A DNA stretch of 41,632 bases from the IMG/VR virus record IMGVR_UViG_2579778554_000004. The stretch is one strand, 5' to 3'. Each line of letters starts with the position of its first letter. Position 1 is the first letter of the stretch. Origin of the DNA: a virus. Lineage: Duplodnaviria; Heunggongvirae; Uroviricota; Caudoviricetes. Made by a program: the position numbers and the translations under genes. Positions 3,151 through 38,837 of this stretch are shown here, piece by piece. The notes below the pieces were generated by a model, which was not told the DNA's origin, searched no databases, and saw only the letters and a program-made list of their open reading frames with translations.

Positions 3151-5613
3151 TCAATTCCCTGTTAATTGCAAAACTTGCTCTTCCAGCTTTTTAACCCTGC
3201 GTCTCATCATCGCAGATTCCAGAATCAGAGCCTCTTCATAACGGATACCGTAACATTCACCAGCCTCGACGGCTTCGCGTACCAGAACCTTTGTCTGTAT
3301 AAGTGGGTAAACTCCTGCAGAATGCTCTTCTTCCGTCACATCCCTGTATTCTGCCGGGGTCTCATTCCACTTGTCATAACAGATAAATGCCAGTCGTGAC
3401 ACATCTATGCCTTCATTCTGAAATACACTGATAACATGCTGCGCAACTGCACCAAAGTGCCATCTTGCTCCGTCTTTACCTTTCACTTCGATCCTGTCAA
3501 GGTACTGGTATGAAACCCATTCCACTCTTTCCCATGCGTCCAGTATTTTCTCATCAATAACCTCTGGAGCAGTCTTGAAACGCGCATCGGACAGCACCGT
3601 AAACGCTGACTGGGTAAATCCCCCCGACCATGCACGACCAGCCAACCCAAGAGAATAAGTATTCGTTGTCGATGGTGTCATGGCTGAATCAGAAAACTGT
3701 ATATATTCTGAATTTCCAGTAGATATTCGAATATTTCCATTTATTAGCGACATAGTGCCTTTAGTATTATCACTATTGAATAATTTCAATTGCGAACTTA
3801 TACCGCCTCCCACAGCCAGAGATACATCGCCTTCAGCAAGCATTCTGAATTTATCTGCAGAAACAAGCGTCTGGTTAGCAAGGTTAAAATATTTAACCCA
3901 CCATTCAAAACGCCCTGACATAGTCCCAACGTACTGACCAAGCGCAGGGACGTGAACAACATTGCTATTTGTAGTGCCGTCTATACTGGAAATACCAGTC
4001 ACCGCTGATGCAGAACTCAGAATATTATTTCTGTCACCCGGATGTTTAATTTCAACAAAGTTCCTGATACACCCTTCCTCGAAGGTAACCACGCCGGAAG
4101 AACTATACATGGGGAATATTGACGCATAATTACTGCGTGCAGCATCTAAGAAACGAATGGTTGTAGATGTCTGCAGATCTCCTGATTCATTTTTCCCATC
4201 ACACCCAGTCATTAGAATATTACTGGCAATATTATTATTTCCCTGAACGGTGACTCCGTGCGCCTGCTTTGCGTCCGATTCAGAGTAATCAACCAGCACA
4301 TTCGAAATCAGGTTACCAGTCCCCTTGCCAACAACTACTGCGGCGTATTTTGGGTTGTTAGCCATTACACTGCTAATGATATTATTCGTTGGGGCAGTTT
4401 CCGTCTCAGTTCCATTGTAAACAACGTGCTGACACTCTTCACCAATAACATTGCTGACAATGTTATATTTTGCTGCTGTTTTAAGTTCCACTGCACCAAA
4501 CTGAGGATAATTTCTGGCTATCACACCATCAATTAGCGTATTTTGCGATGAATCAAAAAGCACACAACCTGCTTTTTTATTATTTGCGAACCCTAAATAC
4601 TCTCCTCTTATATCTCTAACAATGTAACCTGACGGAATACCATTATTCGGATAAGCGATCAAGCTAAATCCTGTTCCTCGCGTATTTGTAAATCTGATAT
4701 TTTTAACCGATACATCATGGCCACCTGAAAATGACACCTGGTGTCCCTGCACACTATCATCTGATTTATTTCCCATAATTGTTAGCGTACTAAGCATGCC
4801 ACCATCGGGCATGTTAAAAACCAGATGATTACCATCTCTGTCATACTGTTTTATCGTTCCCCCACCTGTTCCGTACAAGCCACAACGTGAAAGAGAAACT
4901 AAAGATGTATTGAATACCCCTTCCGGAACAAAAACACTGCTAAACGAATGTAATGATTTTGTAAAAGCCTCCTTGTTATCATTTAAGATTCCATTTTGAG
5001 CTCCAAAATCCTTAATGCTGACACCATCACGCATCTTATCCTGGAGTGTTCTGTATACCGCTCCAGAACCATACTGAATAAACCAACCAAAACCACCAAC
5101 AACCCCGGCGATTGCAGCATCGACATAATTACGCATTGAGCGATTATTTACAGCGTCCTGCTCAAGTGATGGATCGGCAAGGTTAGATATTCTGTTTTGC
5201 TTTGCATCGTAATATTTTGCAAGCAAAGATGGTTTCATCAATGCACGTCTGAACCACCCAAAACATCGCTGGATCAGCATCGTCAGGTAGTCAAATGCAT
5301 CCTCATGAACTTCGGGGAAAAATTTTCCCTGATTGCGAAGATCAGTCTCCTGCACCACATCAAGCACACGCTCTATCGTGATTCGCCAGCCAGCAGCAAG
5401 CGGCGACGGAAGAACCACTGCACCGCCACTATAAGTTCCCGCCCCTGTTACCGTATAACCAGCATCCAGCACTAGTTTTGTAACGTTACCGTTAAGGTCA
5501 GACACCTGAACAACCAGGTCGGATTTTTTGAAAATACGGAAGGTATACGGAAATGATGTCGTAACGCCGTTACCTGTGTATTCGTTGTGGTCAACTTCGG
5601 TTGAGACCGTCAT
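3151..5613 (-). CDS. Tailspike protein with C-terminal intramolecular chaperone (peptidase S74-like) domain
   Basis: 820 aa; conserved podovirus head-binding N-terminus; Gly/Asn/Ser-rich beta-helix-like centre; C-terminal SDARFK...WHFGAVAQHV chaperone motif. Confidence 0.9.
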   Translation of the reverse strand: MTVSTEVDHNEYTGNGVTTSFPYTFRIFKKSDLVVQVSDLNGNVTKLVLDAGYTVTGAGTYSGGAVVLPSPLAAGWRITIERVLDVVQETDLRNQGKFFPEVHEDAFDYLTMLIQRCFGWFRRALMKPSLLAKYYDAKQNRISNLADPSLEQDAVNNRSMRNYVDAAIAGVVGGFGWFIQYGSGAVYRTLQDKMRDGVSIKDFGAQNGILNDNKEAFTKSLHSFSSVFVPEGVFNTSLVSLSRCGLYGTGGGTIKQYDRDGNHLVFNMPDGGMLSTLTIMGNKSDDSVQGHQVSFSGGHDVSVKNIRFTNTRGTGFSLIAYPNNGIPSGYIVRDIRGEYLGFANNKKAGCVLFDSSQNTLIDGVIARNYPQFGAVELKTAAKYNIVSNVIGEECQHVVYNGTETETAPTNNIISSVMANNPKYAAVVVGKGTGNLISNVLVDYSESDAKQAHGVTVQGNNNIASNILMTGCDGKNESGDLQTSTTIRFLDAARSNYASIFPMYSSSGVVTFEEGCIRNFVEIKHPGDRNNILSSASAVTGISSIDGTTNSNVVHVPALGQYVGTMSGRFEWWVKYFNLANQTLVSADKFRMLAEGDVSLAVGGGISSQLKLFNSDNTKGTMSLINGNIRISTGNSEYIQFSDSAMTPSTTNTYSLGLAGRAWSGGFTQSAFTVLSDARFKTAPEVIDEKILDAWERVEWVSYQYLDRIEVKGKDGARWHFGAVAQHVISVFQNEGIDVSRLAFICYDKWNETPAEYRDVTEEEHSAGVYPLIQTKVLVREAVEAGECYGIRYEEALILESAMMRRRVKKLEEQVLQLTGN

Positions 5614-5717
5614 GTTAAATCTCCAGATAGTCGCAGCACCCGTTGCGCCGCATATCTGGTTATTCTATTACCCGAAAAACCATATATGGATAGAGAGACT
5701 GTGAATATGAATAGATA

Positions 5718-5732
5718 TTACCTTTCAGGTAA
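5718..5732. promoter_or_regulatory. Operator-like palindrome TTACC-N5-GGTAA (site 1 of 13)
   Basis: attacctttcaggtaat; intergenic, upstream of LexA box and the 5810 gene. Confidence 0.5.
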
Positions 5733-5769
5733 TTTTCAAAACGTGCTGGATAGCAAACAAATTATTTGC

Positions 5770-5789
5770 TACTGTATAAATATACAGTT
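5770..5789. promoter_or_regulatory. LexA (SOS) box
   Basis: TACTGTATAAATATACAGTT: CTGT-N8-ACAG matching the E. coli consensus at 18 of 20 positions; 6-20 nt upstream of the next start codon. Confidence 0.65.
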
Positions 5790-5809
5790 ATTGCATGGAG
5801 AAGATTAAG

Positions 5810-6067
5810 ATGCAGCAGTATCACTATCCACTGGAAGAGGGATTTACCGAAAGGATTCACACGCCGGGAGGCGTCAGGTCACTGGTGGAGGGATCGCACT
5901 TGATGAAATTACTCCGGGATCTCGATAAGGATGGATTTAATGTCGATGGTCCACTTGCCGAACTGACTGCACTGATTAACTACGTCACCAGCTCACAGAT
6001 GTCTATGCGGGATCTGCAAACACATCTCGACTATTGTGCCGAACAATTACGAAAACAAACCAGATAA
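5810..6067 (+). CDS. Small SOS-box-associated protein consisting only of the domain found at the C-termini of the two antirepressor-like proteins; candidate antirepressor
   Basis: GGAG RBS 9 nt upstream of ATG 5810 (alternative ATG 5795); alignable to the C-terminal ~75 aa of the 6385 and 8152 gene products. Confidence 0.6.
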   Translation: MQQYHYPLEEGFTERIHTPGGVRSLVEGSHLMKLLRDLDKDGFNVDGPLAELTALINYVTSSQMSMRDLQTHLDYCAEQLRKQTR

Positions 6068-6070
6068 GGT

Positions 6071-6099
6071 TTGTAATTACCAAGTGGAGTGCTTATATT
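6071..6099 (+). promoter_or_regulatory. Sigma70-like promoter (TTGTAA-17-TATATT) abutting an operator
   Basis: -35 6071-6076, -10 6094-6099, operator palindrome 6099-6113 immediately downstream. Confidence 0.45.
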
Positions 6100-6384
6100 T
6101 ACCTTTGCGGTAAATTTACACCGCACTCCTCTTGTGCCATAGTAATCGGGCACTGGCAAAATCCAGTGCCGGGATTGGTCTCCCGGATTACTAAGTGGCG
6201 CATACCACGCCAGACGTGGTTTTTTTATGCGTATAGCACAGTCATGCCAGAATTATGGTGGGCTGAATGGGGGTCCGAAAGGACGCCGGTACCACTTAGG
6301 CCGGTAAGACCAACTCCGTTCAGTTCACCACCATCTGATTGGTCTCAGCGGTGGTGATGTAATTCGCTAAGTGGAGACGCCATC
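6099..6384 (+). repeat. Left copy of duplicated ~285-nt structured leader (operator, hairpins, intrinsic terminator, pre-RBS hairpin) upstream of the antA-like gene
   Basis: Reverse-complement match to 8848-9131 with compensatory substitutions in stems; begins with TTACCTTTGCGGTAA. Confidence 0.75.
6204..6226 (+). terminator. Intrinsic terminator or attenuator inside the leader
   Basis: ACCACG-ccaga-CGTGGT followed by TTTTTT; alternative pairing GGCG/CGCC upstream could compete. Confidence 0.55.
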
Positions 6385-7041
6385 ATGAACGCTCAACTCA
6401 TCCCCGTATTCAACGGCACTATCGCCAACGAAACCACTCTTCTCGTTAATGCTCGCGATTTACATACTTTTCTTGGGGTAGGTAAACGCTTTGCATCGTG
6501 GATTACAGAACGCATTGCTGAATATGGTTTCGTTGAAAATCAGGACTATATTTTGGTTTCCCCAAATCGGGAAATCAAAGGTCGAGGAGGCGATCGCCGT
6601 AGCAAAGACTATCACCTCACCCTCGATACGGCCAAAGAAACTGCGATGGTCGAGCGCAACGAAAAAGGCCGCCAGATACGCCGATACTTCATTGAATGCG
6701 AGAAACGTTTAAGACAACAAGAAACAAAGGTGGAGAAGGTCTTGTCAGGCTTCATGCCCGCCATTATGGAGGCGATCAAGCTGGAAGACAAAAAAGAATA
6801 CAGTGCCCCACTGAAGCCCGGCTACCGCAGTCTGATTCACTCGCCGTCGGGTGTTCTCGGCCTGACGGAGAACTCACTGCTGATGAATCTGCTGAACCAG
6901 TTACAGGAAGACGGGCACGACGTATCGGGCGCGGCGGCGGAGCTGACCACCATGTTCTGCTACATCGTCGGTGTGAGCAAATGCCTGCGTGATATCCAGA
7001 CCCACGCGGAGTACATCAACGACAAGGCAGGGTTCTTCTGA
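6385..7041 (+). CDS. Antirepressor-like protein, AntA/AntB-type N-terminal domain plus shared C-terminal domain
   Basis: ARDLHTFLGVGKRFASWITERIAEYGFVENQDY pattern; C-terminal ~85 aa near-identical to C-terminus of the 8152-8847 product. Confidence 0.8.
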   Translation: MNAQLIPVFNGTIANETTLLVNARDLHTFLGVGKRFASWITERIAEYGFVENQDYILVSPNREIKGRGGDRRSKDYHLTLDTAKETAMVERNEKGRQIRRYFIECEKRLRQQETKVEKVLSGFMPAIMEAIKLEDKKEYSAPLKPGYRSLIHSPSGVLGLTENSLLMNLLNQLQEDGHDVSGAAAELTTMFCYIVGVSKCLRDIQTHAEYINDKAGFF

Positions 7042-7060
7042 CGGCGGCGGCACAGGGACG
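6789..7060. repeat. Inner inverted repeat, left copy (3' end of antA-like gene)
   Basis: Near-identical by eye to reverse complement of 8132-8394. Confidence 0.8.
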
Positions 7061-7076
7061 TGCAAAACGAAACTAT

Positions 7077-7090
7077 CGTGACATGTCACA
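7077..7090. promoter_or_regulatory. Conserved 14-mer CGTGACATGTCACA (copy 1 of 3)
   Basis: Identical 14-mer also at 27323-27336 and 29541-29554; contains palindrome GTGACATGTCAC. Confidence 0.4.
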
Positions 7091-7114
7091 GGCCGCTTTC
7101 GCGGCCTTGTTTTT
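7091..7114 (+). terminator. Intrinsic terminator after antA-like gene
   Basis: GGCCGC-tttc-GCGGCC followed by TTGTTTTT. Confidence 0.6.
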
Positions 7115-7345
7115 AACGAATGCCACCGCCGCCTGGGCGGGAATCCGCAGAACGCCCACCGCAGCGGGAGCCGTCAGCGGCAGTATCGCTGTCGTGCTGA
7201 CAACGACCGGCAAAGGCCTGAGTTGAAGCTACCAGAGACAACAAAACGAACAGTGCAGCAAATGCTTTTTTCATTGTGAAATTTCCATCTATAAGCCACC
7301 TCAATGTGGCGTCAATGAGTGTAGCACTGACTTTTGTTTCGTCCA

Positions 7346-7368
7346 CAAAAAAGCCCGCGCTGCGGGCT
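7346..7368 (-). terminator. Intrinsic terminator for the 210-aa gene
   Basis: Hairpin GCCCG-cgctg-CGGGC immediately after stop at 7373, followed on minus strand by U-run (A-tract 7346-7351 on plus). Confidence 0.65.
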
Positions 7369-7372
7369 TCTA

Positions 7373-8005
7373 TTAATGCAGTTTATCTTTGCTTATAACC
7401 AGTAGTCTGTGGGTATGCACATCTTTATCACTGCCCCAACAGAAATCAGCCCACTGGCTATAGAAATCATCCCATGATGTCATGAAGCTAAGAGGTCTAT
7501 CTTCTTCAGAGCCATCTGAAACGTATACATTATATCCTGGGGTGTTTATAGCCCAAGAAATCATTCTTTCCCAGAATCTTCTCCCATCGATTGTTTGTTG
7601 CTCATCAGATACAACGATCGCATATTGCTCTAGGAAGAACTGAAAAAAAATCTGAGGCAAACCATGAACAGCACGGTCATGAATAACATTAGGCGTACGC
7701 CATACCATGATCTGCGTACATGTTCTTTTGGCTTCGACGATATCTTCCCGAAAGATTAACTTAACCGCATACACCGTTTCTGGAGTATCGCTGGTAGTAA
7801 TCATTCTGTAATGATCGCCATTACAAGATTTTACAAGGCGATAACCATAAGGTGTTGTGAATCCCGGAAGAACGAAATCAACCACACCTTTCGCTAAGTA
7901 GCTTTCGGTGTGACTAGTGTTCTTCTCAGACATGTTCAGTTTTCTATCGAAATCTGCTTCTGGGATAATGTATGGCATCGCTTTTCTTGTTGTATTTGTT
8001 CTCAT
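7373..8005 (-). CDS. Hypothetical 210-aa cytoplasmic protein, orphan accessory gene (no family recognised)
   Basis: Strong SD GGGAGG before ATG; own operator-bearing upstream region and own terminator; AT-richer than flanks by eye. Confidence 0.75.
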   Translation of the reverse strand: MRTNTTRKAMPYIIPEADFDRKLNMSEKNTSHTESYLAKGVVDFVLPGFTTPYGYRLVKSCNGDHYRMITTSDTPETVYAVKLIFREDIVEAKRTCTQIMVWRTPNVIHDRAVHGLPQIFFQFFLEQYAIVVSDEQQTIDGRRFWERMISWAINTPGYNVYVSDGSEEDRPLSFMTSWDDFYSQWADFCWGSDKDVHTHRLLVISKDKLH

Positions 8006-8064
8006 TTCGTCCTCCCATGTTTGGCTACAGGACGCGTTTTGAAGGGAAGATTAAAAATGCTTTC

Positions 8065-8079
8065 TTACCCTTGAGGTAA
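8065..8079. promoter_or_regulatory. Operator-like palindrome TTACC-N5-GGTAA (site 3)
   Basis: ttacccttgaggtaa, about 60 bp upstream of the 210-aa gene start. Confidence 0.5.
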
Positions 8080-8131
8080 TAGTACGCTATTCACCCCCAG
8101 TCTGCAATCTGTACAGAATTATTTAAAGGCA

Positions 8132-8394
8132 CATCCCTGTGCCGCCGCCCGTCAGAAGAACCCTGCCTTGTCGTTGATGTACTCCGCGTGCGTCTGGATA
8201 TCACGCAGGCATTTGCTCACACCGACGATGTAGCAGAACATGGTGGTCAGTTCCGCCGCCGCGCCCGATACGTCGTGCCCGTCTTCCTGTAACTGGTTCA
8301 GCAGATTCATCAGCAGTGAGTTCTCCGTCAGGCCGAGAACACCCGACGGCGAATGAATCAGGCTGCGGTAGCCGGGCTTCAGCGGGGCACTGTA
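8132..8394. repeat. Inner inverted repeat, right copy (3' end of bro-like gene)
   Basis: Reverse complement matches 6789-7060 with only a few mismatches. Confidence 0.8.
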
Positions 8395-8847
8395 GGTTTT
8401 GTTCTCTATCTTCATCGCCTGCATTACTGCTGACGCCGTGGCGTTGGCTACCTGGTCGGCAACCATCTTTATGCGTTCTTCCTGCGGGAGCGAGTTTTTA
8501 ATGTAACTTCCGGTGCGGCGGATCTGAGGAAGAACCTCACCTGTAACCCATTTACGAAAGCGGTATGGGATAGTGCCTGGTGTCACCGCATCGCGGCAGC
8601 GGAGGATCAGTGTGTAGAGGCCTGACTCGGAGATAATGATCGATTCTTGCTCACCGCCAGGGGTGTCGGTTGAAGCGACGCCCTTCTCATCATCATCAAG
8701 TTTTCGAACAGCATCTCGATGGTTTGCTATGCCTATAGCCCGACAAACATCTGAAGCGATAAACCATGGCTCACCATTAATGACGATTACCCGTATATCG
8801 GCTTGAGATTCGAAAGAAAAAATGGACGTGCTTTTTGTAGCTGTCAT
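8152..8847 (-). CDS. Antirepressor-like protein, Bro-N/P22-Ant-type N-terminal domain plus shared C-terminal domain
   Basis: N-terminus IRVIVINGEPWFIASDVCRAIG typical of Bro-N/Ant; C-terminus identical to antA-like C-terminus. Confidence 0.8.
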   Translation of the reverse strand: MTATKSTSIFSFESQADIRVIVINGEPWFIASDVCRAIGIANHRDAVRKLDDDEKGVASTDTPGGEQESIIISESGLYTLILRCRDAVTPGTIPYRFRKWVTGEVLPQIRRTGSYIKNSLPQEERIKMVADQVANATASAVMQAMKIENKTYSAPLKPGYRSLIHSPSGVLGLTENSLLMNLLNQLQEDGHDVSGAAAELTTMFCYIVGVSKCLRDIQTHAEYINDKAGFF

Positions 8848-9131
8848 AGTGGTTACCTTTTAGTCTGGTTAATCACCACTACCGACGCCAATCGGTTGGT
8901 GGTGAACTGTGCAGGGTTGGCGTAACCGGCTAAAAGGACCCGGCGCACCTTTCGGTGCCCCCACACAGCCCACCATAATACGAATGTGGCCGTGCTATAC
9001 GCATAAAAAAACCGCTTGCGCGGTGAATGCGCCTTTTAGTAATCCGGGACGCCAATCCCGGCACTGGATTTTGCCAGTGCCCGATTACTATGGCACAAGA
9101 GGAGTGCGGTGTAAATTTACCGCAAAGGTAA
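8848..9131 (-). repeat. Right copy of duplicated structured leader, upstream of the bro-like gene
   Basis: Reverse complement of 6099-6384; operator TTACCGCAAAGGTAA at 9117-9131; terminator hairpin ACCGC-ttgc-GCGGT plus A-run 9005-9024. Confidence 0.75.
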
Positions 9132-9278
9132 TGATAGACACAGACAAACATTAAAATCAACCATATTTGGTTAATGTGTGTAAAAGAGCCAGCAGCGAGA
9201 AATTGTGCCGCGACGTAAAATAACGAGCATCTGCTGGCTTACAACCAGCGATGTTTCAAATTTGTCACTACTATCAAC

Positions 9279-9626
9279 GTGCCATTACACGGCGCAGAGC
9301 TTTATGTCGTCAATCACAACGGCGAACCGTACACCCCAATGAAACCTATCGTTGAAGGCATGGGTATGGTTTGGGCTGCTCAATTTGTTAAATTAAAACA
9401 GAGATTTGTCAAAGGTATTTCGGAAATCGAAATACCTTCTGCTGGCGGTAAACAGTTAATGATATGCCTTGCCTTTCGTAAGTTTGCGGCTTGGCTTTCA
9501 AGCATTCAGCCAAACAAAGTCTGCCCTGTAATCCGCGAAAGTATTGAAACATCAACCGTATCGATATCGACACGGTTGATTATGACGGTAACTTATTTCC
9601 GTGTGTACTATTTCTCCCGCCACTAA
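9279..9626 (+). CDS. Hypothetical protein, possibly a truncated antirepressor-like N-terminal domain
   Basis: 115-aa ORF; C-terminal 20 aa look like out-of-frame sequence; family assignment uncertain. Confidence 0.4.
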   Translation: MPLHGAELYVVNHNGEPYTPMKPIVEGMGMVWAAQFVKLKQRFVKGISEIEIPSAGGKQLMICLAFRKFAAWLSSIQPNKVCPVIRESIETSTVSISTRLIMTVTYFRVYYFSRH

Positions 9627-9923
9627 CTAATTATATTTGTCTTTAAAAATTTCATGGAATGATTGAGAGTAAGACTTGCCATACTTCAAATAACATTCTT
9701 CATCCAACTTTCTTAATGAACTTCGAACCTGTTCGTGGCATACAGCAAAAAAAACAAGTCCGCCGCCTATTAATACCCCTATTGATATTGGGTTCGCAAC
9801 ATCCCATAAAAAATCGGCTAACAGAGCAAATACCCCACCGCCGCCAATAAATGCCCCTATAGCTCGGTTCGTTTTAGCTTGCTCATAGCGTCTCTCTAAC
9901 TCACTAAACTCTTTAATATCCAT
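9627..9923 (-). CDS. Small two-TM membrane protein; candidate superinfection-exclusion or toxin-like factor
   Basis: GAGGTG RBS; two Gly-rich hydrophobic helices (GAFIGGGGVFALL, IGVLIGGGLVFFAV); AT-rich. Confidence 0.55.
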   Translation of the reverse strand: MDIKEFSELERRYEQAKTNRAIGAFIGGGGVFALLADFLWDVANPISIGVLIGGGLVFFAVCHEQVRSSLRKLDEECYLKYGKSYSQSFHEIFKDKYN

Positions 9924-10000
9924 ATAAGCACCTCTATAAAATTACTTCATCACCGGATCCACCTGGTTTATTAGTGGCGCAATCCAGAACAGATGTTTTA

Positions 10001-26621: not shown

Positions 26622-26698
26622 GTGGCATTAGCTCAGTTGGACAGAGCAACCGCCTTCTAAGCGGTTGGTCGCAGGTTCGAATCCTGCATGCCACGCCA
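26622..26698 (+). tRNA. tRNA-Arg, anticodon UCU (reads AGA), CCA encoded
   Basis: Cloverleaf by hand: acceptor GTGGCAT/ATGCCAC, D-arm GCTC..GAGC, anticodon stem ACCGC/GCGGT with loop CTTCTAA, T-arm GCAGG-TTCGAAT-CCTGC, discriminator G plus CCA. Confidence 0.9.
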
Positions 26699-35888: not shown

Positions 35889-36473
35889 ATGAAAAGTATC
35901 CAGGACGTCCGCAGGCAAAATCTCAACGACTTGATCGACCGTGAATTCAATGGTGTTCAGACGCGGATGGCAGAAAAACTTGGAACTCAGGCAAATCTGG
36001 TAAACCGCTGGGCTCTTGGCAAGAAGGTTATCGGCGACCAGGTTGCGCGAAAAATTGAAGCTGCCGCCAATAAACCACGTAACTGGCTTGATATCGATCG
36101 CTCGCTTTCTCAGGAAGGTTTTCAGCCTGTCGGCCCAAGCGACATTGGTCAGCTGGCGGCTCACAACCTGGAACGCTGGATGAGCGAAAGCCGCGACCTT
36201 TCAACTCAGGGAAAACTTCACCGCGCATCCGGCGTCGCCCAGGTGACAATCAGCCGCCTGTTAAACAATGAGGTCAGTGTTTCCATTTCCACCCTGGAGA
36301 ATGTTGCATCAGCATTCGGGCGTCACGGCTATGAATTACTGATTCACCCGCACGACCCTGCGACCATCAACTATGACCGCTCGCGCTACGCATTGTTACC
36401 CGAAACCGAGAAAGCAAAGATCGAAAGTTACATTGAATTTGTCATCAACCAGAACGAAAAAAACAAACAATAA
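35889..36473 (+). CDS. Prophage repressor (CI-like), tandem HTH domains, no autocleavage domain
   Basis: Two XRE-type HTH regions; no Ser-Lys peptidase motif seen; divergent from Cro-like gene. Confidence 0.75.
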   Translation: MKSIQDVRRQNLNDLIDREFNGVQTRMAEKLGTQANLVNRWALGKKVIGDQVARKIEAAANKPRNWLDIDRSLSQEGFQPVGPSDIGQLAAHNLERWMSESRDLSTQGKLHRASGVAQVTISRLLNNEVSVSISTLENVASAFGRHGYELLIHPHDPATINYDRSRYALLPETEKAKIESYIEFVINQNEKNKQ

Positions 36474-36781: not shown

Positions 36782-37081
36782 ATGAACGTTAATCAGCAGA
36801 AAAATCTTCAAAAAATCATGCTGGCATTCGACAAGGACTACCGCCTGTCAGAACAGCTATATGACCGACAAGTTGAACTGATCGAGAGCATCCGGCTTCA
36901 TCAACTGGCCTCAACTTTCGACGCTGTAACAGGTAAAGGCGTTCGCCAGGAAGTACTGGAGGCCGCTAAAGACAGTCCAGAGTTCGAAGAACTGATGGAT
37001 TCCTACCGGCGAGAGGCAATGGCAATTATCGCCCGCTGGGATCTGGCTGATCAGCTTGATGGGCAGAGGGACGCGGCATGA
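36782..37081 (+). CDS. Hypothetical protein
   Basis: ATG 36782 two nt after upstream stop; stop overlaps exonuclease start. Confidence 0.55.
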   Translation: MNVNQQKNLQKIMLAFDKDYRLSEQLYDRQVELIESIRLHQLASTFDAVTGKGVRQEVLEAAKDSPEFEELMDSYRREAMAIIARWDLADQLDGQRDAA

Positions 37082-37899
37082 AACCGGGAATTTATTTCGA
37101 CATCAGCAACGAAGACTACCACGCCGGTGACGGCGTGAGTAAGTCGCAACTGGACATGGTTGCCAAGAATCCGGCGCTTCTTAAATGGGTTCAGGCAGCA
37201 CCAGAAGACGAAGAGAAAAAGTCTGCACTGGATATGGGAACCGCATTGCACTGTCTGCTTCTGGAGCCTGGAGAGTTCGACAAACGCTTCATTGTTTCAC
37301 CGAAATTCGAACGTCGGACGAAACAAGGTAAAGCTGACGAAGAGGCATTTCTTCGTGATATTGCGGATATGGGGATTTCGGTACTTGATGCAGAGCAGTG
37401 GCGGAAACTGGAGCTGATGCGTGATAGCGCAATGGCTCACCCGGCGGCACGCTGGATGTTGGAAGCACCTGGTTACTGCGAAGCATCAATGTACTGGAAC
37501 GATGAAGAGACGGGGGAGTTGTGCCGAATTCGTCCAGACAAATGGCTGAACGAGCACAACGTGATCGTCGACGTGAAAAAGGTTGCAGATATGGACCGTT
37601 TTGCACGCCACATCGAGGAATTCCGCTACCACGTGCAGGACGCAATGTACCGCGAAGGCGCAATGAGGGTTACTGGTCAGCCGCATGGTTTTTTCTTTCT
37701 TGCCGTGAGCGAAAGCATTGATTGTGGTCGGTATCCGGTACGCGTGTTCGAGCTGGATGCGCAGGATGTCGATGCCGGGCACGCTCTGTTCCGCCGGGAT
37801 CTGAATACCTATCACGAATGCCGCATCAATGATGAATGGGGCGGTGTGGAAATCATTAAACGCCCTGAGTGGGCACGCAAACAGGATATGTACATATGA
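37078..37899 (+). CDS. Putative recombination exonuclease, PD-(D/E)XK superfamily
   Basis: IRPD...IVDVKKV motif consistent with PD-(D/E)XK; paired with RecT-like gene. Confidence 0.7.
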   Translation: MKPGIYFDISNEDYHAGDGVSKSQLDMVAKNPALLKWVQAAPEDEEKKSALDMGTALHCLLLEPGEFDKRFIVSPKFERRTKQGKADEEAFLRDIADMGISVLDAEQWRKLELMRDSAMAHPAARWMLEAPGYCEASMYWNDEETGELCRIRPDKWLNEHNVIVDVKKVADMDRFARHIEEFRYHVQDAMYREGAMRVTGQPHGFFFLAVSESIDCGRYPVRVFELDAQDVDAGHALFRRDLNTYHECRINDEWGGVEIIKRPEWARKQDMYI

Positions 37900-38837
37900 G
37901 CAACGACATCGCAAACATCAACGCACCAGTAGACACAGCAATCGCTGGAACTGCTGCAACTATTTTCAGCCCAGACGGCTTGAACCAACTGATGAAATTC
38001 GCCGAGGTAATGGCGCAAAGCCGCGTAACGGTACCGGCGCACCTCGCCGGGAAACCAGCTGATTGCATGGCCGTGGCAATGCAGGCTGCGCAGTGGGGAA
38101 TGAACCCGTTTGCCGTGGCTCAGAAAACCCATGTTGTGAACGGCACGCTAGGTTATGAAGCCCAATTAGTAAACGCAGTTATCTCAACGATGTCGCCAAC
38201 AAAAGATCGCATCAACTACGAGTGGTTCGGGCCGTGGGAACGCGTGATCGGTAAGTTTGTTGAGAAAACATCCAAAAACGGCAATCCATATATCGCACCA
38301 GGCTGGACTCTAAAAGACGAAGAAGGCTGCGGTGTTCGCGTATGGGCAACCATGAAGGGCGAGGATCAACCTCGAGTGCTTGAGTTAATGCTGTCTCAAG
38401 CACAGGTAAGAAACTCCACACTTTGGGCCAGTGATCCGAAACAACAACTCGCATACCTTGCGACAAAACGCTGGTCTCGCTTGCACTGTCCTGACGTAAT
38501 CATGGGCGTCTACACCCCTGACGAATTACAGGAAACGGCACCGCGCGTTGAGCGAGACATTACTCCGCAAACGACCACTGCTGCGGGAATGAACAGTCTG
38601 ATCAACGCTAAACCAGTGAAAAAGCCTGATGAGCAAACGCGTAAAGCGGATAGCCGTGATCCAGAAGAAATGCTGATGGCCTTTACCAGCGCAGCGATGA
38701 ATTACAGCACTGTCTCCGAACTGGATAAGGCTTACAAATACATTGAACAGAAACTTTCAGATGATGACGAACTGCTGGCAAAAGCCACCGACGTTTACAG
38801 CGTTCGTCGGGAAGAATTAAACGAAACATCTATGTAA
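37896..38837 (+). CDS. RecT/Bet-family single-strand annealing recombinase
   Basis: AAQWGMNPF motif comparable to lambda Bet QYGLNPW; ATGA overlap with exonuclease stop. Confidence 0.75.
   Translation: MSNDIANINAPVDTAIAGTAATIFSPDGLNQLMKFAEVMAQSRVTVPAHLAGKPADCMAVAMQAAQWGMNPFAVAQKTHVVNGTLGYEAQLVNAVISTMSPTKDRINYEWFGPWERVIGKFVEKTSKNGNPYIAPGWTLKDEEGCGVRVWATMKGEDQPRVLELMLSQAQVRNSTLWASDPKQQLAYLATKRWSRLHCPDVIMGVYTPDELQETAPRVERDITPQTTTAAGMNSLINAKPVKKPDEQTRKADSRDPEEMLMAFTSAAMNYSTVSELDKAYKYIEQKLSDDDELLAKATDVYSVRREELNETSM

Follow-up and report, generated by a model that had tools for sequence, protein, structure and literature searches.

The antirepressor in PDB entry 5D50 is the Ant protein of SPC32H, an epsilon15-like Salmonella phage; two reports describe it as tetrameric, engaging a pair of Rep dimers via the Rep C-terminal domain and so breaking up the DNA-binding tetramer (PMC9638917; PMC9986798), and a review describes LexA-controlled antirepressors for Salmonella prophages, SPC32H included (PMC7380047). 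In the Bro network, immunity RNAs of the P1/P4 type (C4/isrK) are placed beside Bro-network genes, and the swapping of domains beside these RNAs has already been described (PMC10111431); IsrK of Gifsy-1 is documented separately (PMC4825925). Here we analyse a near-identical inverted repeat in a stretch of viral DNA of 41,632 nucleotides (nt; IMG/VR record IMGVR_UViG_2579778554_000004), which we call the window and which represents a complete prophage of the epsilon15/phiV10-like (Uetakevirus-type) kind from an Escherichia coli host. The repeat is very likely the DNA of one and the same repressor-binding domain of about 80 residues, present at the C-termini of two convergent composite antirepressors, and it serves in related prophages as a joint for the exchange of modules and not as a programmed switch.

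Results

Geometry and coding content of the repeat

A repeat search placed the inverted arms at 6786-7044/8149-8407 (259 nt, 96%) and 7043-7063/8129-8149 (21 nt, 95%), two segments that are offset by one indel, and pairwise alignment gave a core repeat of 6799-7063 on the plus strand against the reverse complement of 8129-8394 (265/266 nt). Six substitutions and one single-base indel separate the arms, an identity of 97.4% (97.7% excluding the gap), and the longest perfect run between them measures 101 nt (6841-6941). The near-identical inverted repeats of about 270 bp reported in a preliminary description of this DNA are thus real, at 265 bp, and the limits given there (6789-7060 and 8132-8394) lie about 10 nt or less from the true ends. 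The arms and the two genes that contain them are as follows.

6799-7063, plus strand: left arm, comprising 80 codons, the stop and 22 nt (repeat search and alignment)
8129-8394, minus strand: right arm (repeat search and alignment)
6385-7041, plus strand: AntA-type composite antirepressor gene, with an AntA N-domain (residues 21-92) and a C-domain resembling SPC32H Ant (residues 137-213)
8152-8847, minus strand: Bro-N composite antirepressor gene, with a Bro-N domain (residues 17-107) and the same SPC32H-Ant-like C-domain

The two genes are convergent and 1.1 kb apart. Each arm consists of the last 80 codons and the stop of its gene, AntA-type on one side and Bro-N on the other, together with 22 nt beyond the stop, and the C-terminal 81 residues of the two proteins are identical. 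The 22-nt tail that runs past both stops (7042-7063 and 8129-8151; GGCGGCGGCACAGGGAYGTGC) ends at the same nucleotide in every related locus examined, and this fixed end suggests either a conserved element or a preferred boundary of exchange.

The prophage is delimited by the host genes yfgH/yfgI on one side and by a tyrosine integrase on the other. The part of the window from 5600 to 9950 (4.35 kb), which contains the whole repeat, is matched at 100% identity in 30 closed E. coli genomes, and an O25b:H4-ST131 strain is found among these carriers.

Antirepressors and their presumed common repressor

The AntA-type protein matches Pfam PF08346 (E 3.6e-27) and is named 'phage antirepressor Ant' by the Prokaryotic Genome Annotation Pipeline (PGAP; WP_000993735.1), while the Bro-N protein matches PF02498 (E 2.3e-21) and, on residues 148-229, phrog_450. 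The C-terminal domain that they share has no match in Pfam and is assigned to phrog_450 by PHROGs. When the PDB was searched with phmmer, residues 137-213 of the AntA-type protein matched residues 3-79 of the 86 residues of 5D50_E, 'Anti-repressor protein' (E 4.3e-14); judged by its sequence, the arm-encoded domain is a full-length homologue of SPC32H Ant. The remaining components of a Rep/Ant pair are also encoded in the prophage.

5810-6067, plus strand: stand-alone antirepressor Ant of 85 residues (epsilon15 gp19-like, phrog_450), a third paralogue of the arm-encoded domain
5772-5787, plus strand: perfect LexA box CTGTATAAATATACAG, upstream of the stand-alone Ant gene
35889-36473, plus strand: prophage repressor, homologue of SPC32H Rep (PDB 5D50_A 'Repressor', E 4e-42, residues 1-190)

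The stand-alone Ant, which PGAP labels only 'hypothetical protein', is near-identical to SPC32H Ant over 83 residues (5D50_E, E 5.6e-47) and shares 41% identity with residues 137-214 of the AntA-type protein. The LexA box lies 23-38 nt upstream of its gene. A scan of the window for such boxes returned three matches against 0.6 expected by chance, none of them upstream of either fused antirepressor gene, where C4/isrK leaders are found instead. The stand-alone Ant with its LexA box is probably the SOS-responsive induction switch of the prophage. In the repressor, the C-terminal half, which is the Ant-binding domain in Rep proteins of the SPC32H type, matches the 5D4Z fragment (E 4e-20). The prophage inventory comprises three Ant-fold proteins and one Rep, and we infer from sequence homology that all three Ant-type domains would bind this single SPC32H-type repressor.

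Immunity-RNA leaders of the composite genes

The region upstream of each composite gene carries RNA elements of the kind that precede antirepressor genes in P1- and P4-type immunity systems. The leaders, and an antirepressor remnant next to the second of them, are listed below.

6089-6358, plus strand: leader A, with promoter-like hexamers, an isrK/seqA-like element (6150-6226) and a C4/CI-like antisense RNA (6251-6335)
8872-9141, minus strand: leader B, with an isrK-like element (9080-9005) and a C4-like RNA (8980-8895)
9234-9545, plus strand: truncated P22_AR_N antirepressor pseudogene (PGAP pseudogene; Pfam PF10547, E 1.4e-25, on the open reading frame 9279-9626)

All four leader matches lie above the Rfam gathering scores (45 for C4, 50 for isrK), with 67.7 bits for isrK and 61.2 bits for C4 in leader A and 77.9 and 77.7 bits, respectively, in leader B. 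In P1/P7 heteroimmunity the loop of the C4 RNA is complementary to the region of the antirepressor ribosome-binding site, and the two co-vary. A corresponding complementarity is present in both leaders of the window: the C4 loop of leader A, CCACTTAG (6292-6299), is complementary to CTAAGTGG (6367-6374) at the AntA-type ribosome-binding site, and the loop of leader B, CCTTTTA (8937-8931), to TAAAAGG (8862-8856) at the Bro-N ribosome-binding site, the two leaders differing in loop specificity. Among about 100 leaders of related loci, loop and ribosome-binding site co-vary in four compensatory classes (CCACUUAG/CUAAGUGG, CCUUUUA/UAAAAGG, CCUUUGUA/UACAAAGG and CCUACUAG/CUAGUAG). This covariation is direct comparative support for antisense control, and it explains why each leader variant travels with its own N-terminal module. 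The two loops differ in all 14 loci that have two leader cassettes (13/14 in the core of the loop), against an expectation of matching loops in about one third of random pairings. The C4-like RNAs would each repress their own gene, presumably with no cross-reaction between the two.

A further copy of the C4 target motif is held within the isrK-like element. Leaders A and B are 77% identical up to the start codons and include a perfect block of 80 nt (6099-6178, equal to the reverse complement of 9052-9131); the outer leader copies are less alike than the arms, as had been noted beforehand. The P22_AR_N pseudogene lies directly against leader B at its outer end, facing away from the leader, and the same junction recurs in those related loci with a distal leader-type cassette that extend far enough. 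The recurrence of this junction suggests that the distal cassette arrived by rearrangement.

Conservation of the arms

The five coding differences between the arms are all synonymous, giving a non-synonymous divergence (dN) of 0 and a synonymous divergence (dS) of 0.093 over 57 synonymous sites. Among 101 arms of related loci, variant codons are synonymous in 53 cases versus non-synonymous in 10, and 87 of the 101 encode one of two peptides that differ by an E/D replacement. By these measures the arm domain is under strong purifying selection, as would be expected if all copies need to fit the same Rep, and constraint at the protein level would explain most of the excess similarity of the arms over the non-coding leaders.

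The preliminary description had taken the closeness of the arms as a sign of recent gene conversion. That a recent intragenomic event homogenized the arms of the window, and for this reason left them more alike than the leaders, we regard as unlikely. The contrast between 97.4% identity for the arms and 77% for the leaders fits such an event, and conversion does occur in this family, as indicated by the arms of CUVET21-H2, which are 99.2% identical and have rare variants in common. Exchange inside the arm is also apparent from the four-gamete test, in which all four combinations are present at 329 of 703 informative site pairs, a result that implies such exchange across the population. However, mean arm identity is 96.5% within genomes versus 96.1% between genomes (permutation p ~0.06), and 11% of the between-genome arm pairs are as alike as the window pair (97.7% excluding the gap) or more so. 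The five coding differences in the window, at a dS of 0.093, are synonymous without exception; with non-synonymous sites set aside, the divergence of the arms is only about two- to three-fold below that of the non-coding leader, which itself has the 80-nt perfect block. The window arms being no more alike than arms taken across genomes, a private recent gene conversion does not appear to be needed for them, and the claim of such an event is not sustained. The comparisons already tend toward paired arms that do not group by genome.

Exchange of modules among related prophages

The arm was followed through 80 IMG/VR loci fetched via the 53-aa protein of the slot between the arms, together with loci from phages and closed genomes, all of them classified by BLAST of their modules. 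The usual layout is a tailspike gene (minus strand), the stand-alone Ant (plus strand), a leader, an N-module, the arm, an optional cargo and the 53-aa gene. In the window the corresponding slot contains the following features.

7373-8005, minus strand: 210-aa cargo gene (phrog_1349), co-directional with the Bro-N gene
7113-7274, minus strand: gene for a signal-peptide protein of 53 residues (phrog_14503, 'membrane associated protein'), at the end of the cargo slot
7090-7107, plus strand: intrinsic terminator of the AntA-type gene (terminator scan; folding -16.5 kcal/mol, z -4.0)
7347-7367, minus strand: intrinsic terminator after the 210-aa gene (GCCCGC-AGC-GCGGGC then U6; folding -16.8 kcal/mol)

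Over about 90 loci the arm, at 93-100% nucleotide identity, is joined to seven or eight N-modules and five cargo states. The N-modules are AntA (two to three alleles), five Bro-N variants and ORF6N, with an Ant of the P22_AR_N type in the distal slot; the cargo states are the 210-aa gene, two YafO-toxin cassettes, another two-gene cassette, and nothing. N-modules and cargo pair with little restriction, 31 of their 35 combinations being seen. Two proposals of the preliminary description are supported by this survey: that the conserved domain may act as a recombination linker for N-terminal modules, given seven or eight of these on one arm in 31/35 combinations with cargo, and that cassettes are exchanged, given that related prophages carry YafO cassettes, the two-gene cassette or nothing in the same slot. 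The arms all end at the same nucleotide, beyond which the sequence takes either a 'cargo-side' or a 'terminator-side' exit. Aligned with CUVET21-H2, the window loses homology at two points, 6358 (where the leader ends on its inner side) and 6766 (just upstream of the arm), which bracket the N-module alone.

A single arm is present in 64 of 88 loci, so that the cargo is independent of a second repeat. A single orientation, together with the same cargo in relatives lacking the repeats, had been named beforehand as what would tell against inversion or exchange at the repeats; one half of this is what the survey returned, the same cargo standing without a second repeat in most relatives (64/88 single-arm). 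Taken together, the sequences of the arm and its surroundings point to exchange from one phage genome to another, and flipping inside a single genome is not required. Elsewhere the prophage encodes, as we infer, a candidate catalyst for exchange between short homologies.

37078-38837, plus strand: recombination pair, consisting of a PD-(D/E)XK nuclease (37078-37899) and a RecT-family recombinase (37896-38837; PGAP annotation)

In ETEC1749 (L094, NZ_CP122712.1) the convergent antirepressors are each followed by a cargo, Bro-N by YafO and the P22-type Ant by the two-gene cassette, and no 53-aa gene is annotated in this locus. With both genes having a cargo of their own, the slot can be filled from both sides.

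Orientation of the segment between the arms

We searched a set of 5,426 closed E. coli genomes for two synthetic flip junctions. One orientation is shared by all 30 closed genomes with the exact locus, the serial isolates DS566, DS566-1 and DS566-2 included, and the flipped inner-segment junctions of this locus are present in 0/5,426 genomes. The junction of Bro-N, arm and terminator side has no full-length match in this set; that of AntA-N, arm and cargo occurs at full length in 14 closed genomes, in each of which the locus has one arm and another AntA allele (93.6% identity). No serine invertase appears in the PGAP annotation of the whole prophage, which lists only the tyrosine integrase at the attachment end, or in Pfam scans of the neighbouring open reading frames. 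Programmed inversion is not supported. The preliminary description had reached the same view from the lack of an invertase gene, and it is upheld by the absence of a serine recombinase from the prophage annotation and by the one orientation in closed carriers.

Inversion of 7064-8128 at an appreciable rate in lysogens, carried out by RecA or the phage RecT with no invertase and switching the predicted GNAT-like cargo between the two operons, is in our judgement quite improbable. The 101-nt perfect run in the arms and the encoded RecT/nuclease pair would provide the means. In the metagenome contig L022 (IMGVR_UViG_3300029303_000315) every module is 100% identical to the window and the cargo is flipped, the first arm passing from left-type to right-type single-nucleotide polymorphisms (SNPs) inside the 101-nt perfect run, as from a reciprocal crossover, and the contig ending in the same run of the second arm. 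The draft contig L035 (IMGVR_UViG_2740892230_000001) presents the analogous isomer of a TL-2011b-type locus and ends at the second arm. In addition, the scan gave no terminator-like site between the Bro-N stop and the 210-aa gene, from which the cargo may be co-transcribed with the gene that it follows. However, both flipped contigs end in or at the second arm, L022 in the very run of identity where a short-read graph collapses, and may be chimeric; the pattern of L022 fits a reciprocal crossover or a chimeric short-read assembly path equally well. Flipped copies were seen only in these two draft contigs, and the junction of P22-type Ant, arm and YafO found in L035 has no full-length match in closed genomes. 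The closed carriers are in one orientation in 30/30 cases, the serial DS566 isolates among them, the Bro-N, arm and terminator-side junction is found in 0/5,426, that of AntA, arm and cargo occurs only in single-arm loci, and the 210-aa gene is followed by a terminator belonging to the cargo.

At the outer repeat pair the situation is different. In the closed genome AH20E044 (L008, NZ_CP196245.1) the segment 6099-9131 is reversed relative to the window, with flanks that are 98-99% identical and in the same order and with break points in the 80-nt perfect leader block; L065 and L067 show the same relationship. The AntA allele of AH20E044 differs (81% identity), so that a single inversion alone does not separate it from the window. 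A reading of the BLAST extents in which the leaders stayed with the flanks and only the coding segment inverted was considered and rejected, as leader variants travel with their N-modules; the long high-scoring segment pairs run through the leaders because these are themselves inverted repeats. Inversion at the outer (leader) pair is effectively observed, and rare homologous inversion at either repeat pair is plausible. It is very unlikely that inner arms and outer leader blocks together form a four-isomer shuffling unit that is flipped by RecA or RecT in the absence of an invertase, with L022, L035 and AH20E044 as snapshots of it. If true, such a unit would re-pair two leaders, two N-modules and the cargo, and would create heritable heterogeneity both in the signal that triggers induction and in the operon that bears the cargo.

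Cargo genes and other features

The preliminary description had placed a single orphan gene of 210 codons between the repeats. This gene is present as described but is one of two genes inside the repeats, and it has homologues, which fall into 63 clusters across Enterobacterales. Its product has a predicted GNAT-like fold, with conserved residues Q137-T138...G141-R-R143 before or at the start of helix 139-154 that are an inexact match to the canonical acyl-CoA motif Q/R-x-x-G-x-G/A. The 53-aa gene is invariant as the last gene of the slot whatever the cargo (at least 97% nucleotide identity over about 90 loci), and its product has a signal peptide and two cysteines. Neither protein has a match in Pfam, and no PADLOC defence-system model matches the cargo or its neighbours.

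The terminator at 7347-7367 was read from the sequence and is not in the output of the terminator scan. On the minus strand the stem at 7090-7107 follows the 53-aa gene and has no adjacent U-run. No promoter inside the cargo segment passed the consensus scan; two sub-threshold promoter-like pairs were noted by eye, TTGCAG-17-TACTAT (8107-8079, minus strand) and TTGACG-16-TATAGA, the latter before the 53-aa gene. Elsewhere in the window a tRNA gene lies at 26622-26695 on the plus strand (tRNA in Rfam, tRNA-Arg according to PGAP).

Discussion

According to the interpretation that we favour, the repeat reflects a repressor-binding domain shared by two antirepressors, and the locus would function as follows. 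Each composite gene is situated behind its own immunity-RNA leader of the P1/P4 type, the two having different specificities, and the stand-alone Ant with its LexA box would be the canonical SOS-controlled antirepressor, such that one SOS-controlled and two RNA-immunity-controlled antirepressors would converge on one repressor. If binding to a common Rep holds, the arms would be nearly identical because both must fit the same target, and substitutions would accumulate in them only at synonymous sites. Over evolution, three joints would be open to homologous recombination, namely the arm, the 80-nt block at the 5' side of the leader, and the 53-aa gene with the terminator. When co-infecting phages and resident prophages exchange DNA at these joints, N-modules, leaders and cargo would be reassorted; RecA or the RecT/nuclease pair of the phage could act as the catalyst. 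Intramolecular inversion between the arms would be physically possible, probably at a low rate, and neither programmed nor frequent; it would only shift the cargo cassette from one antirepressor operon to the other.

A number of observations weigh against this interpretation. The binding of the fused domains to Rep is deduced from a sequence identity of about 40% to the solved complex. The arms of CUVET21-H2, at 99.2% identity and with shared rare variants, resemble the outcome of local conversion. In L022 and L035 the cargo is flipped relative to loci that are otherwise identical, and the P22-type Ant is linked to cargo in the closed genomes of SCU-387 and ETEC1749 and unlinked in nine other loci, an arrangement that earlier exchange or inversion at the arm could have produced, though it proves neither. 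On the strength of these loci, the arms may invert more often than one would judge from the closed genomes. An assembly shows only whichever orientation predominates in the culture, and the 30 carriers, identical over 4.35 kb, may be clonally related and would then amount to few independent observations.

A function of the repeat at the level of RNA is highly improbable. Transcripts of the Bro-N gene and cargo that read through into the left arm would have ends able to pair over 265 bp and would be antisense to the AntA-type mRNA, coupling the two operons via RNase III or transcriptional interference. In favour of such coupling, the genes converge only 1.1 kb apart and the minus-strand stem after the 53-aa gene has no U-run, so that termination there may be leaky. 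Conversely, the plus-strand terminator at 7090-7107 is canonical, the single-armed majority of loci (64/88) cannot use the mechanism, and the ends of the repeat are set by the protein domain and the fixed 22-nt tail and not by any RNA element found. An origin of the repeat by duplication during assembly or by chance matching can be dismissed as next to impossible, since 4.35 kb (5600-9950) are 100% identical in 30 independently closed genomes, both genes are intact and annotated, the arms carry distinct SNPs, and a repeat of this length and identity excludes chance.

Understood as the shared domain of two antirepressors, the repeat follows in an ordinary way from how the genes are arranged and is a by-product of little importance; the surrounding locus is the more instructive. 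Three proteins of the SPC32H-Ant fold would be aimed at a single repressor, with a LexA box and two antisense-RNA leaders as their controls. The natural variation around the arm shows where phages cut and paste modules, providing a testable picture of how induction inputs diversify, and it defines a slot for accessory genes in a prophage family represented in several hundred closed E. coli genomes, about 540 genomes having a match to the arm or to the 53-aa gene. For annotation purposes, phrog_450 and the C-terminus of proteins called 'BRO-N' or 'Ant' can be labelled as an SPC32H-Ant-like repressor-binding domain. In the literature searched, from which the original SPC32H papers were absent, no description was found of the SPC32H-Ant fold fused to Bro-network N-domains, nor of three Ant-fold genes under different controls in one prophage.

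The locus can be compared with several described systems. As in homologous-recombination inversions (prophage- or rrn-mediated) and in the invertible segments and shufflons of Hin/Gin/Cin and R64, inverted repeats flank a segment, and in AH20E044 a 3-kb segment is inverted; unlike Hin/Gin/Cin and the R64 shufflon, the window has neither a site-specific invertase nor short crossover sites, and a flipped inner segment of this locus is absent from the closed genomes. With phage morons and accessory hotspots it shares a fixed slot, here between the arm tail and the 53-aa gene, that holds alternative accessory genes, and a terminator following the 210-aa gene. It differs in the position of the slot, which lies within an antirepressor operon, and in that the consensus scan yielded no clear promoter belonging to the slot.

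The leaders resemble those of P1/P7 immI (c4-icd-ant), P4 CI/seqA-seqB and Gifsy-1 isrK-orf45-anrP, where an isrK/seqA-like RNA and a C4/CI-like RNA likewise precede an antirepressor gene (for the relation of P4 to the Rfam families, see PMC10111431). In contrast to these, the window leaders have no icd-like open reading frame, and two cassettes of different specificity converge in one prophage, with regulation here predicted from sequence. The AntA, Bro-N, ORF6N and P22_AR_N N-modules of the window and related loci are combined with an interchangeable C-module beside C4/isrK RNAs, as in the Bro-N network, although the C-terminal partner is the SPC32H-Ant fold (phrog_450, without a Pfam model), which lies outside the ten Pfam families treated in PMC10111431. 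Of the SPC32H Rep/Ant switch, the window has the Rep homologue, a near-identical stand-alone Ant and a LexA box upstream of it. In the window, however, the Ant fold is also fused to Bro-network N-domains in two extra genes, which are under antisense-RNA leaders and not LexA, and the binding of these fusions to Rep is predicted. The SPC32H Rep/Ant switch, Bro-network swapping with C4/isrK RNAs and slots of the moron type are all known kinds, of which the present locus is arguably a minor variant.

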